Below are positions 29,361-36,065 of a stretch of 64,000 bases of DNA, piece after piece. How positions within the stretch are numbered: position 1 is the first letter of the stretch; every line of letters begins with the position of its first letter. Position numbers and translations under genes: made by a program. The notes below the pieces were generated by a model, which did not search any database, was not told where the DNA came from, and saw nothing but the letters and a program-made list of their open reading frames with translations. This DNA is from Escherichia coli (GTDB lineage: Bacteria; Pseudomonadota; Gammaproteobacteria; Enterobacterales; Enterobacteriaceae): NCBI RefSeq assembly GCF_048403405.1, contig NZ_CP183129.1; one strand, written 5' to 3'.

Positions 29361-29638
29361 ATCACGAAATACCAAATACCACTCTTTCTACGGTCTATGC
29401 CTTTATTTTCTTTTATTAGAGAAGATTTTAATTTTATTTTATCAACTTGTTAATCATTACACCTCTATTTATATTTTCCCCCACTCCCCATTCTCCCTGA
29501 CAATTTTCTTGTGGAACAAAGTGTTATTTAAGAAACAAGCAAATCATTCTGTCTCTTTAGACAAATTTTGACATCAAACATGATCTTTTTCGCTATATGT
29601 GTAAGTATATATCGGTTTTAATTATCAGGATATTACTT

Positions 29639-30661
29639 ATGTCACTAACCAGACGGAGGTTTACACAGATTCTTGCGTCGACATTGTTCCTGCATCATCT
29701 GCCGTCCTTTGCACTATCAGTCAAATTCTGGGCCTCACTGACGCTTCCCGAAGCCCAAAACATTACACGCATCGTCAGCGCAGGCGCGCCCGCCGATTTA
29801 CTATTGCTGGCTGTCGCGCCAGAAAAAATGGTCGGTTTTTCCTCTTTTGATTTTGCCCGTCAGGCATTAATTCCATTGCCAAAGCACATTCGCCAGTTCC
29901 CCAGGCTGGGACGACTCGCCGGGCGCGCCAGCACACTCTCGCTGGAAGGGCTTATGGCGTTACATCCCGATTTGGTCGTTGATTGCGGCAATACGGATGA
30001 AACCTGGATCTCCCAGGCACGGCAGGTTAGCGAACAGACACAAATACCCTGGTTATTGCTTAACGGGAAACTGGAACAATCAGCAGAACAGTTAACAACG
30101 CTTGGCAAAACGTTAGGCGAAGAGCACCGCACCGCAGAACAAGCCAATCTCGCCAGCCGCTTCGTTGGTGAAGCTCAGGCATTCGCCACCTCACCCGCCG
30201 CTAACCTCAGCTTTTATGCTGCGCGCGGTCCTCGAGGGCTGGAAACGGGCTTACAGGGTTCGTTGCATACCGAGGCGGCGGAATTATTAGGTTTGCACAA
30301 CGTCGCGCAAATAGCCGATCGCCACGGTCTGACACAGGTTTCCATGGAAAATCTCCTGCGCTGGCAGCCGGATATTATTCTGGTTCAGGAGGCCGTTACT
30401 GCAGATTTTATTCGTCGTGATCCTCTCTGGCAGGGCGTGAAAGCGGTTGCGGAACAACGCATCTTATTTTTAAGTGGCCTGCCCTTTGGCTGGCTGGATG
30501 CCCCGCCGGGAATCAACCGTCTTCTGGGATTACGCAGACTTCACGCCTGGCTGGATCCCGCCATCAATCGCCAGTTTAAAAGTGACATGCAGCATTACGC
30601 CCAACTGTTCTGGCATTGCCTATTAAGTGACGCCGACTATCAAAAATTGGTGGCGAGCTAA
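29639..30661 (+). CDS. ABC transporter periplasmic substrate-binding protein (siderophore/cobalamin-type)
   Basis: Start chosen at the ATG after AGGA (MSLTRRRFTQILAS..., Tat-like RRxF signal); domain class is inferred from operon context, not from a recognised motif. Confidence 0.65.
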   Translation: MSLTRRRFTQILASTLFLHHLPSFALSVKFWASLTLPEAQNITRIVSAGAPADLLLLAVAPEKMVGFSSFDFARQALIPLPKHIRQFPRLGRLAGRASTLSLEGLMALHPDLVVDCGNTDETWISQARQVSEQTQIPWLLLNGKLEQSAEQLTTLGKTLGEEHRTAEQANLASRFVGEAQAFATSPAANLSFYAARGPRGLETGLQGSLHTEAAELLGLHNVAQIADRHGLTQVSMENLLRWQPDIILVQEAVTADFIRRDPLWQGVKAVAEQRILFLSGLPFGWLDAPPGINRLLGLRRLHAWLDPAINRQFKSDMQHYAQLFWHCLLSDADYQKLVAS

Positions 30662-31641
30662 TGAGAACCGTAAACGGATGTATTTTGCTGCTGGCAGCTA
30701 TCAGTATCACTTTTGCCGCCGTAAGTGGGGCTTATCATCTCGATATACAGCAACTGCTGGCGCTCATTCTTCGTCAAGAAAATGTTCCTGTGCAGGAACA
30801 AATTGTCTTCTGGCAAATCCGCGTGCCGCGTATTCTTGCTGCGCTGTTTCTGGGCGCGGCGCTGGCAGGGGCCGGAACCACCTATCAGGGAATGTTCCGT
30901 AATCCCTTAGTGTCACCGGATATTTTAGGCGTCTCCGCCGGTGCCGGACTTGGTGCCTGCGCGGCAATCCTGTGGGGATTATCCATTGTTTACATCCAGC
31001 TGTACGCATTTTGCGGCGGGCTGATGGTGGTCGCGGGCGTCTGGTTGATTACGCGTCGGGTGACCCGCCACGATCCGATCTTAACCCTGGTGCTGGTAGG
31101 CATTGCGTTAGGAACGTTGTGCGGAGCGGGGATATCGCTAATAAAAACGCTGGCCGATCCTTACACCCAGTTACCGTCAATTACCTTCTGGTTGCTGGGG
31201 GGGCTGTCCACCGTGACCTTACGCGATCTCTGCTATGCTGCACCGATCATTCTCATAGGCTCCTTGCCCCTGTTTTTTCTCCGCTGGCGTATGAATTTAC
31301 TCACGCTTTCCGACGACGAAGCCCGTTCGCTGGGACTGAACGTGACACGTCTGCGCTTTGGATTAATTGTCTGCGCCACACTAATCACCGCCAGCACGGT
31401 AGCAATAGCGGGCATAATTGGTTGGGTCGGCCTGGTCGTTCCGCACATTGCCCGCTTGTTGACCGGTCATAACCATCAGCAGCTGTTGCCCATGGCAATG
31501 TGTACTGGCGCGATTCTGCTCCTGCTTACCGATACGCTGGCACGCAGCATTGGAACAACAGAAATCCCACTTGGCATTCTGACCGCTTTTGTTGGTGCAC
31601 CGTTTTTCCTGTTTTTGTTGTTACGCGGAGGTCGCCAGTGA
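30661..31641 (+). CDS. ABC transporter permease (FecCD/BtuC family)
   Basis: 326-aa polytopic membrane protein; stop overlaps the start of the downstream ATPase (GTGA). Confidence 0.8.
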   Translation: MRTVNGCILLLAAISITFAAVSGAYHLDIQQLLALILRQENVPVQEQIVFWQIRVPRILAALFLGAALAGAGTTYQGMFRNPLVSPDILGVSAGAGLGACAAILWGLSIVYIQLYAFCGGLMVVAGVWLITRRVTRHDPILTLVLVGIALGTLCGAGISLIKTLADPYTQLPSITFWLLGGLSTVTLRDLCYAAPIILIGSLPLFFLRWRMNLLTLSDDEARSLGLNVTRLRFGLIVCATLITASTVAIAGIIGWVGLVVPHIARLLTGHNHQQLLPMAMCTGAILLLLTDTLARSIGTTEIPLGILTAFVGAPFFLFLLLRGGRQ

Positions 31642-34069: not shown

Positions 34070-34094
34070 TTCTTTGTTAAACGGAATTTATTCT

Positions 34095-36065
34095 ATGAGA
34101 CTCAAAAAACGTTATCTCTGCACTGCATTATCACTTGCCTTTACCCAGCAGGCCGTAGCGGCTCAGGAGAGTGACACGCTGACCGTATGGTCCAGTCCGG
34201 TATCATCGACGACGACCACCGTTCTCGATCAACCCACCATGAAGGCCCTGGATAAACAGAATGTCGCTCAGGCATTAAGTGTCGTCCCCGGCGTGGTGCT
34301 GCAAAAGTCAGGCAGCCGCAACGAAGAACAGGTAAAAATTCGTGACTTTGATAGTCGGCAGGTGCCGGTCTATTTCGACGGTGTGCCCATTTATGTTCCC
34401 TATGACGGCAACCTCGATCTGGCGCGGATTCTGACCAACAATTTGGGGGCAGTTGAAGTTTCCAAAGGGTATTCGTCGCTGCTTCAGGGGCCTAATCAGA
34501 TGGGCGGAGCCATTAATATCACCACCCAGAAGCCAACAAAACCTCTGGAAGCAAATCTGGGATATCGCCAGGGATGGAGCCGTAGCCAGGACAATGCCTA
34601 CGATATGCATGCTTCATTTGCCGCCAGCAGCGATCTGGGGTATTTGCAAGTCAGCGGTAGCCAGCTAAAGCAGGATTTTCTCGGCCTGCCGCATGGTGTA
34701 AATAATGATATTGCAGGCAAACACGGCAAGATGATTAATTCATCGGCTGATGATAAACGCGGCATTGTGAAGCTCGGTTTTACACCACGCGAAAACGATG
34801 AATACACATTGACTTACATTAAGCAGGATGGTGAAAAAGATAACCCGCCATACAGTGGAAATAGTGGTCAAAAATCACGCTACTGGCAGTGGCCAGAGTA
34901 TGACAAAGAAAGTTTTTATTATCAGGGAACGACCCAACTAAACGATCGTTTTACCCTGAAAAGTCGGCTGTATCGCGACACCTTTGAAAATACGCTGATG
35001 ATGTACAACTCGCTGGCTGATTTGAAAAATAAAAAAGGCAGCTACAGCCATTATTCCGATTACAGCGACGGTGCCGGGTTACAACTGGCAGCCGATGTGC
35101 GTGAAAACGATCTGCTGTCGTTTGCCGTTAACTGGAAAGATGACGTACACCGGGAAAAAGGTGCGCCGCACGCCGCTTACGATCGCTATGAAGATCGTAC
35201 CTGGTCGCTCGCCAGTGAATATCAATGGGCTGCTGCCGATAATGTCGATGTCGTGGCTGGAATCAGCTATGACTGGCGCGATAGCGTAGAAGCGAAAAAA
35301 CATGAGAAAGATGGAAGCATCACCCATTATGACGACAACAATCAGTCAGCTTTTAACTGGCAGGTGATGGGGAAATACCACTTTGCCAATGAAGACACGC
35401 TGGCGCTTTCGTACTATGACCGCACACGCTTTCCGACGCTGAAAGAACGCTATACCACGTCCAAACCTGCGTATAACCAGATAGCGATTGTTAACCCGCA
35501 GCTCAAACCGGAACGCGCGCGCGGGGTGGATTTAACCTGGAATGGTGCCTTCACGCACGACTGGGGGTTTGAGGTCAGCGTTTACTATAACCGGGTGAGT
35601 GATGCCATCCTCTCGCACAATATCGATGCCGATACCATTCAAAATCAGAACAGCGGCACGGTGGATTACAGCGGTCTGGATGCCGGTATTAAGGGGAAAA
35701 TCAGCAATATACTGGATGTAGGATTGAGCTACGCCCTGATCCACGCTGATGCCAAACGCAAAGACATCGGCAAGATAACCGATCTGCCAACGCAGACAAT
35801 GACCGCATGGATGACTCTCAAACCGTGGGAGCCGTTAAACGTAACGCTGTCGGAAGAGGCGCGTTCCTCCAGCTACAGCAACAGTGACGGTTCACAAAAA
35901 GCCGCCGGTTTTGCGGTGACCCACATTCGAGCCGATTACACCTTAGGTCATGGCTTCAGCGTCAATGCGTCGGTCAATAACCTGTTTGATACCCAATATG
36001 CCTACAGTGAAGGGTTTATTGAAGAAGGTCGCAATTTCTGGGCAGGTATCGAGTATACGTTCTGA
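34095..36065 (+). CDS. TonB-dependent outer-membrane receptor
   Basis: Signal peptide, TonB-box-like DTLTVWSS, plug-plus-barrel length (656 aa), C-terminal aromatic residue (…GIEYTF). Confidence 0.85.
   Translation: MRLKKRYLCTALSLAFTQQAVAAQESDTLTVWSSPVSSTTTTVLDQPTMKALDKQNVAQALSVVPGVVLQKSGSRNEEQVKIRDFDSRQVPVYFDGVPIYVPYDGNLDLARILTNNLGAVEVSKGYSSLLQGPNQMGGAINITTQKPTKPLEANLGYRQGWSRSQDNAYDMHASFAASSDLGYLQVSGSQLKQDFLGLPHGVNNDIAGKHGKMINSSADDKRGIVKLGFTPRENDEYTLTYIKQDGEKDNPPYSGNSGQKSRYWQWPEYDKESFYYQGTTQLNDRFTLKSRLYRDTFENTLMMYNSLADLKNKKGSYSHYSDYSDGAGLQLAADVRENDLLSFAVNWKDDVHREKGAPHAAYDRYEDRTWSLASEYQWAAADNVDVVAGISYDWRDSVEAKKHEKDGSITHYDDNNQSAFNWQVMGKYHFANEDTLALSYYDRTRFPTLKERYTTSKPAYNQIAIVNPQLKPERARGVDLTWNGAFTHDWGFEVSVYYNRVSDAILSHNIDADTIQNQNSGTVDYSGLDAGIKGKISNILDVGLSYALIHADAKRKDIGKITDLPTQTMTAWMTLKPWEPLNVTLSEEARSSSYSNSDGSQKAAGFAVTHIRADYTLGHGFSVNASVNNLFDTQYAYSEGFIEEGRNFWAGIEYTF

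Follow-up and report, generated by a model that had tools for sequence, protein, structure and literature searches.

A TonB-dependent uptake cluster between treA and ymgE of Escherichia coli as a predicted ModE-repressed operon for molybdenum or tungsten acquisition

The gene cluster between treA and ymgE

A 64,000-nucleotide (nt) stretch of the Escherichia coli contig NZ_CP183129.1 (assembly GCF_048403405.1; referred to here as the window) carries six plus-strand open reading frames (ORFs) between treA (27602-29302), which lies upstream, and the convergent gene ymgE (36115-36402), which lies downstream on the opposite strand. In order, these encode a periplasmic binding protein, a permease and an ATPase of an ATP-binding cassette (ABC) importer, an S-adenosylmethionine (SAM)-dependent methyltransferase, ModD, and a TonB-dependent outer-membrane receptor. 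Our analysis suggests that this cluster is probably an operon that ModE represses and that serves the TonB-dependent uptake of molybdenum or tungsten, consisting of a MolBC-A-like importer, its receptor and two accessory enzymes. The ORFs are co-oriented and tightly packed, and neighboring frames share 1 nt at 30661 and 4 nt at both 31638-31641 and 33215-33218; a preliminary description of this DNA, made from the sequence alone, had reported the six ORFs, their shared orientation and these junctions, and all are present as it described.

Start codons follow those annotated by RefSeq for these genes in E. coli Nissle 1917, and map to 29639, 30661, 31638, 32406, 33215, and 34095. Judged against that annotation, the ORF limits given earlier hold at the junctions, while two starts had been placed too far upstream. 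The binding protein begins at ATG 29639 (MSLTRRRF) and not at 29597, a position that falls within the operator predicted below, and the receptor begins at ATG 34095 and not at TTG 34074.

Every one of the six ORFs has a strong family match, which places five of the proteins clearly and the methyltransferase only in generic terms. The 340-aa binding protein (29639-30661) belongs to PF01497 and carries a twin-arginine signal peptide, the RR motif of which is conserved in orthologues. The type II ABC importer permease (30661-31641) is of the FecCD/BtuC type by family match and MolB-like by a sequence search of solved structures, and the ATPase subunit (31638-32396) was identified by its family match. 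The next gene (32406-33218) encodes a class I SAM-dependent methyltransferase, as judged by family match and an AlphaFold2 (AF2) model, and is followed by that for ModD (33215-34069; TIGR01334), which has a quinolinate-phosphoribosyltransferase fold. The 656-aa receptor (34095-36065) possesses a signal peptide, a TonB-box-like motif, a plug and a barrel.

A hairpin at 29317-29353 on the plus strand, with fully (100%) complementary 11-bp arms GAGCAATGCCA and TGGCATTGCTC followed by TTTCTT, is the probable terminator of treA. Because this terminator-like element follows treA, the cluster is expected to have its own promoter. At the other end, a second hairpin, GCGGATAG-N14-CTATCCGC (36073-36102), is situated between the convergent receptor and ymgE genes and is also found in K-12. 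It was not flagged by the terminator scan, and we suggest only tentatively that it could be a terminator shared by the receptor and ymgE genes.

The predicted ModE operator and its conservation

A predicted ModE operator, TTCGCTATATG-TGTAAG-TATATATCGGT, occupies 29589-29616 and leaves 22 nt between its end and the binding-protein ATG. This inverted repeat departs at three of 20 positions from the published E. coli ModE consensus, ATCGNTATATA-N6-TATATANCGAT (PMC545781). It is the sole match to the consensus in the window, and none appeared in 100 shuffles. The modA operator of K-12, used as a positive control, has four mismatches and ends 17 nt before the modA ATG. A perfect -35-type hexamer, TTGACA (29568-29573, plus strand), can be read from the sequence 15 nt upstream of the operator.

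It had been proposed earlier that Fur or other metal-regulator boxes be sought in 29330-29640, and the informative box in this interval proved to be the ModE operator, with no Fur box. The best upstream matches to the Fur consensus contain six to seven mismatches in 19 positions, the same as 82 other sites in the window, and candidate FNR sites upstream are limited to three-mismatch matches such as occur at 300 other places. An Rfam search of 27000-38000 at E-values up to 1 returned no riboswitch (for B12 or the molybdenum cofactor) and no match of any kind. A promoter scan picked up two weak sites, both within 29425-29475, and nothing near the operator. The spacer at 29330-29560 is unusually AT-rich (GC fraction 0.37 over 29250-29749, compared to about 0.52 in the surrounding DNA) and may hold further regulatory sites.

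Conservation of the box across genera is the main evidence for assigning the cluster to the predicted ModE regulon. We examined 80 loci (1.45 Mb) anchored on the methyltransferase family and drawn from the Gamma-, Beta- and Epsilonproteobacteria and others, accepting boxes with up to four mismatches. These loci contain 74 ModE boxes, compared to zero to three in five block-shuffled controls. Nearly half of the boxes (36 of 74) lie just upstream of a binding-protein gene, with a median gap of 26 nt, 24 lie just upstream of a receptor gene and five upstream of a methyltransferase gene; in all, 65 are within 150 nt upstream of cluster genes. At least four of the other nine precede mod genes (loci L075 and L071). 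The six-gene order is kept in Escherichia albertii, Citrobacter, Raoultella, Serratia, Pectobacterium, Erwinia, Proteus, Morganella, and Providencia. ModD is missing from the cluster in Shewanella and a few further taxa, the receptor gene comes first in the Betaproteobacteria, and Edwardsiella carries the methyltransferase and ModD alone.

In the arrangement we propose, ModE-molybdate would bind at 29589-29616, between the -35-like hexamer and the start codon, when molybdate is sufficient, and would block transcription as it does at modA; the operon would then be expressed when molybdenum is scarce. We infer repression, not activation, from where the operator lies, as at modA, and from Haemophilus influenzae, in which molB is repressed by molybdate (PMC4031551). 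We regard as improbable the converse arrangement, in which the ModE site activates and the cluster provides a low-affinity route at plentiful molybdate or tungstate, or a route specific for tungstate. ModE does not distinguish molybdenum from tungsten, which counts in favor of such a route. So does the behavior of H. influenzae MolBC-A, which contributes to uptake at high molybdate only and behaved as a low-affinity system (PMC4031551), and ModE is named as an activator of the E. coli moaA and dmsA promoters in the titles of works referenced in PMC10845959. However, the gap between operator and ATG resembles that of repressed modA and is not an upstream activator position, the H. influenzae molB response is in the opposite direction, and an energy-consuming outer-membrane receptor would make little sense for an abundant solute.

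Transport proteins, accessory enzymes and the transported species

The best solved relative of the permease is MolB (HI1471, 2nq2_A) of the H. influenzae molybdate/tungstate importer, which aligns over 313 aa with 43% identity and a score of 223 bits; other solved permeases score lower, FhuB at 175 bits and BtuC at 146 bits. The AF2 model of the binding protein has a mean predicted local distance difference test (pLDDT) score of 88.5, and its best fold match is 4pag, an uncharacterised protein of Sulfurospirillum (template-modelling (TM) score 0.78-0.82). The nearest characterised fold is MolA (3psa; TM 0.65-0.67, 20% identity). A siderophore or YiuA-type identity was rejected for this protein, as YiuA and the haem and B12 binders are more distant folds than MolA.

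The signal peptide of the receptor ends between AVA and AQE and is followed by SDTLTVWS, which contains the TonB-box-like motif DTLTVWS; the plug spans residues 39-139 and the barrel residues 223-630. The protein stays below threshold for all curated receptor families, among them the TonB-copper, ZnuD, and BtuB models. It scores 119 bits against a cut-off of 317 for the TonB-hemin family, 118 against 223 for TonB-siderophore, and 75 against 600 for BtuB. No curated NCBIfam equivalog exists for the receptor, the binding protein or the methyltransferase.

These scores bear on two readings of the cluster that differ from molybdenum uptake. The first, that it imports an iron chelate, siderophore or haem and carries the two enzymes as unrelated passengers, is in our judgment very unlikely. 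It draws on the name given to the binding protein by the NCBI annotation pipeline PGAP (“iron ABC transporter substrate-binding protein”), on weak sub-threshold matches to FecB, FepB, IsdE, and siderophore or haem receptor subfamilies, and on the presence of YiuA and haem-binding proteins among the more distant fold matches. The Fur matches, however, are at background level and a strong, conserved ModE operator is found instead; the matches to iron families are far below their cut-offs (32 against 320 bits for FecB and 22 against 205 for FepB, besides the receptor scores above), and the neighbors of the receptor family described below are molybdenum and tungsten genes. This agrees with the preliminary description, which had called the gene combination unusual for plain iron uptake. 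Public names for the cluster proteins are otherwise generic, and the “iron” name is probably wrong, as would then be thousands of database entries that carry it for this protein.

The second reading, salvage and remodelling of a corrinoid or other cofactor by a BtuB/BtuCD-like transporter with the methyltransferase and phosphoribosyltransferase acting on the cofactor, seems if anything more remote still. The activation of cobamide lower ligands does involve phosphoribosyl transfer, the permease matches BtuC models (243 bits, under the cut-off of 461), and the methyltransferase weakly matches CbiT and CpaM, a corrinoid-protein-associated methyltransferase. Against this, the Rfam search found no cobalamin riboswitch, the receptor is far from the BtuB cut-off, the permease is clearly nearer MolB than BtuC, and the predicted regulator is ModE and not one responding to B12. 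The earlier proposal had left the metal open between iron, molybdate and cobalamin; the ModE operator and the MolB-like permease favor molybdenum or tungsten, and iron and cobalamin find no Fur box or riboswitch to support them.

We are aware of no TonB-dependent receptor that has been characterised as a molybdenum transporter. A full-library search with the receptor recovered 381 representative clusters at E-values up to 1e-30, from which eight distant members (31-37% identity) were picked independently of the methyltransferase, giving nine loci. Four of these adjoin genes of the ModABC type: L091 encodes modB, modC-TOBE, a ModE-like helix-turn-helix (HTH) protein, modA, and the receptor; L085 a type I permease, an ATPase, a ModA-type binding protein, the receptor, and a second ModA-type protein; and L087 and L088 a TOBE protein, a ModE-like HTH protein, the receptor, and a ModA-type protein. 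The same FecCD cassette as in the E. coli cluster is found in L086, L089, and L090, while L092 carries a ModE-like HTH gene, the receptor, a FecCD cassette, and XdhC, and L093 the receptor, FmdE, DUF364, XdhC, and FecCD. In six of these nine loci, ModE-like boxes immediately precede the receptor gene or the cluster. In Zymomonas mobilis, the nif cluster holds modD, modE, and two TonB-dependent transporter genes together (PMC8594446), and ModD has been reported to be raised under N2 fixation (PMC8600466). It is conceivable, with the balance falling slightly short of even, that the receptor represents a widespread and as yet uncharacterised family of TonB-dependent molybdenum/tungsten transporters and that ModD and the methyltransferase perform a step in molybdenum handling common to ModABC- and MolBC-type routes.

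Two further features of the distant loci were observed. The receptors of L092 (12181-14612) and L093 (3055-5286) are linked to XdhC, which acts in molybdenum cofactor insertion, and to FmdE and DUF364/DUF4213 proteins, an accessory set that differs from the methyltransferase and ModD of E. coli. In L087 (12174-12701) and L088 (10091-10618), which derive from an unrelated metagenomic lineage, a TehB-like methyltransferase is encoded a few genes downstream of the receptor/TOBE/ModA-type cluster; this hints that methyltransferases recur near molybdenum/tungsten uptake genes in more than one family.

The family matches to ModD and the methyltransferase bear out the earlier statement that the cluster combines uptake with two enzymes. 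ModD scores 503.9 bits against TIGR01334 (cut-off 178.85) over residues 2-278, making it a clear member, with the NadC fold, of the family of ModD from the modABCD genes of Rhodobacter capsulatus. Identification as the quinolinate phosphoribosyltransferase NadC was rejected because its score against TIGR00078 (134.8 bits) is below the curated cut-off of 198.4 and because Phe163 occupies the position of the quinolinate-binding NadC residue Lys172. This Phe is invariant in 19 ModD orthologues, and a Lys is found at the position of Arg105. In an alignment to 1qpn, ModD retains equivalents of Arg139, Lys140, His161, Arg162, Glu201, and Asp222 of quinolinate phosphoribosyltransferase. We know of no function assigned to ModD in any organism since it was first named.

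The methyltransferase is well modelled (AF2 pLDDT 92) and less readily placed by similarity: Foldseek returned only generic small-molecule methyltransferases at TM scores of about 0.5, matches to curated families were generic and sub-threshold, and a sequence search of the Protein Data Bank gave weak matches to CbiT, UbiG, and WbdD. Its genomic contexts are more specific. The methyltransferase is located within modABC operons (loci L075 and L071). In Aliarcobacter, it and ModD close an operon that begins modE-modA-mop-modB-modC and has two ModE boxes in front of it, while Halomonas shows the arrangement modB-modC-methyltransferase-modE. Judging from these neighbors, the protein is a member of a distinct family tied to molybdate transport.

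ModABC imports the bare oxyanion. Since both enzymes accompany either type of transporter, a role on an organic ligand specific to the receptor is argued against, and the two would most likely act on something common to both uptake routes. For the same reason, and because MolA binds an oxyanion, we favor an oxyanion as the transported species, with a chelated form being possible. The cluster had earlier been thought to modify or salvage a metal chelate or cofactor-like molecule, a suggestion that the occurrence of the enzymes in ordinary modABC operons weakens.

An elaborated version of that idea, to which we assign a small but appreciable chance, is that the cluster imports a molybdenum-organic chelate, such as a molybdophore or a pyridine-, quinoline- or catechol-type ligand of host or microbial origin, and that ModD and the methyltransferase free the metal or dispose of the ligand. 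Chelates and cofactors are the normal cargo of TonB receptors and type II importers, ModD combines phosphoribosyltransferase catalytic residues with a remodelled base pocket in which an invariant Phe substitutes for Lys172, the methyltransferase is similar to small-molecule methyltransferases, and 8-hydroxyquinoline-2-carboxylate has been proposed as a molybdophore (PMC7356571). However, the two enzymes are found in plain modABC operons that have neither receptor nor type II importer and whose transporter handles only the oxyanion. Conversely, receptor and importer occur without ModD, as in Shewanella, or without either enzyme in several lineages. The characterised relative MolA binds bare molybdate or tungstate according to the title of PDB entry 3psa and PMC4031551, and genes for chelator biosynthesis are absent nearby.

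In the proposed uptake of a molybdenum or tungsten oxyanion, the receptor would actively take the species across the outer membrane, the MolA-like binding protein, exported by the twin-arginine pathway, would capture it once in the periplasm, and from there the MolBC-like type II importer would pass it into the cytoplasm, where the methyltransferase and ModD would serve as accessory enzymes of molybdenum uptake. Several points weigh against this scheme. Molybdate should pass through porins, which leaves the need for an energised receptor unexplained, and the usual ligands of both type II importers and TonB receptors are larger. As some promoters are activated by ModE, the case for repression rests on geometry, and the TTGACA at 29568 lacks a clean -10 element at 17 nt. 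The ATPase is no closer to MolC (HI1470; 124 bits) than to FhuC (119 bits), and the binding protein shares only about 20% identity with MolA, belonging to a 4pag-like subfamily whose top structural representative is uncharacterised. The low-affinity behavior of MolBC-A also sits awkwardly with a scavenging role (PMC4031551).

A comparison to H. influenzae MolBC-A (HI1470-HI1472) shows similarity in the permease, in the fold class of the binding protein and in the adjacent modD gene (HI1473), modD being known to adjoin molABC in that organism (PMC3928620). The E. coli cluster adds the TonB-dependent receptor and the methyltransferase. Molybdate-responsive expression has been measured for MolBC-A and is predicted for the E. 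coli cluster, which has an E. coli-type ModE operator, whereas the regulator of MolBC-A was reported as unknown (PMC4031551). With the ModABC/ModE regulon of K-12 the cluster shares the operator sequence and its position at modA, as well as the predicted derepression at low molybdate. Unlike ModABC, which is a type I system with a PF13531 binding protein and no outer-membrane part, it encodes a type II, FecCD-type permease, a PF01497 binding protein, and a TonB receptor, and thus does not have the composition of a ModABC transporter. The logic of an energised receptor, a periplasmic binding protein, an ABC importer and a metal-specific repressor is the same as in the systems of ZnuD (zinc), OprC/NosA (copper), FrpB4 (nickel), and BtuB-BtuFCD, from which the cluster differs in its regulator and inferred metal.

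Molybdoenzymes, including the nitrate, trimethylamine N-oxide, dimethyl sulfoxide, and tetrathionate reductases and the formate dehydrogenases, power anaerobic respiration in the Enterobacteriaceae, also when these bacteria bloom in the inflamed gut. Tungstate has been used to poison these enzymes. If the proposed function is correct, about 40% of E. coli and many strains of Proteus, Providencia, Morganella, Citrobacter, Edwardsiella, and Shewanella would possess a second, energised molybdenum/tungsten route that has been invisible in studies of K-12. Control of such a route by ModE would change models of molybdenum acquisition, competition and tungstate sensitivity in pathogens and commensals alike. 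A TonB-type outer-membrane route, so far undescribed for molybdenum or tungsten, would add an oxyanion metal to the substrates of TonB-dependent transport, and the cluster would offer a tractable system for finding the function of ModD. A full-text literature search turned up no account of this cluster, nor of a TonB receptor under ModE control, though an earlier in silico prediction is possible. Among its hits, “modD” in PMC7549933 appears to be mdoD as spelled in the competition table of that paper, and a mention of Z1966 in PMC5543532 was uninformative.

Distribution and history of the cluster

At least 80% of the cluster region is present in 2139 of 5426 complete E. coli genomes (about 39%), while the last 59 bp of the region are all that K-12 derivatives, O111, and strain 042 hold. 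In K-12 BW25113, only ycgY is found at the site, in agreement with the earlier statement that K-12 lacks the cluster and has ycgY alone between treA and ymgE. The last seven codons of the receptor gene (GVEYTF*; equivalent to 36042-36065 of the window) are nevertheless kept beside ymgE in BW25113, and therefore a ycgY segment of about 600 bp replaced the whole cluster in the K-12 lineage. We considered ycgY as a remnant of a cluster gene and rejected this, as its protein has no similarity to any cluster protein. The placement of the cluster between treA and ymgE-ycgR is also found in E. albertii and several Citrobacter species. Because of this synteny and the seven-codon remnant in K-12, the cluster is best understood as ancestral at this site, with loss by replacement in part of E. 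coli; the label “islet” used for it previously, which implies acquisition, does not fit.

Several individual genomes depart from the common arrangement. E. coli strain 4621, a blood isolate otherwise 100% identical, carries an IS1 element (468-1165 of the fetched locus) in the spacer between treA and the binding-protein gene, about 200 bp upstream of the ModE operator, and this insertion might alter expression of the operon. A decayed cluster is present in Pluralibacter gergoviae (3812-6613 of the fetched locus), in which the permease and ATPase are reduced to fragments of 148 and 101 aa; its ModE box is intact (one mismatch), and downstream of an intact methyltransferase gene lie a MOSC-like (6-hydroxyaminopurine-reductase-like) gene and another ModE box. 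On scaffold 1 of Affinibrenneria salicis, one 20.8-kb stretch that includes the full cluster is found at two places (144261-165058 and 910071-930868), in opposite orientation and with identical hit coordinates, and is thus either duplicated as a large inverted repeat or an artefact of the assembly. A 3.2-kb contig labelled as a Collinsella sp. metagenome-assembled genome encodes an ATPase, methyltransferase and ModD with 98-99% protein identity to those of E. coli and is almost certainly a mis-binned Escherichia contig. In Citrobacter koseri NCTC10786, the matches to treA, the binding-protein gene, ymgE, and ycgR are each split over several frames, which suggests assembly frameshift errors rather than real pseudogenes.

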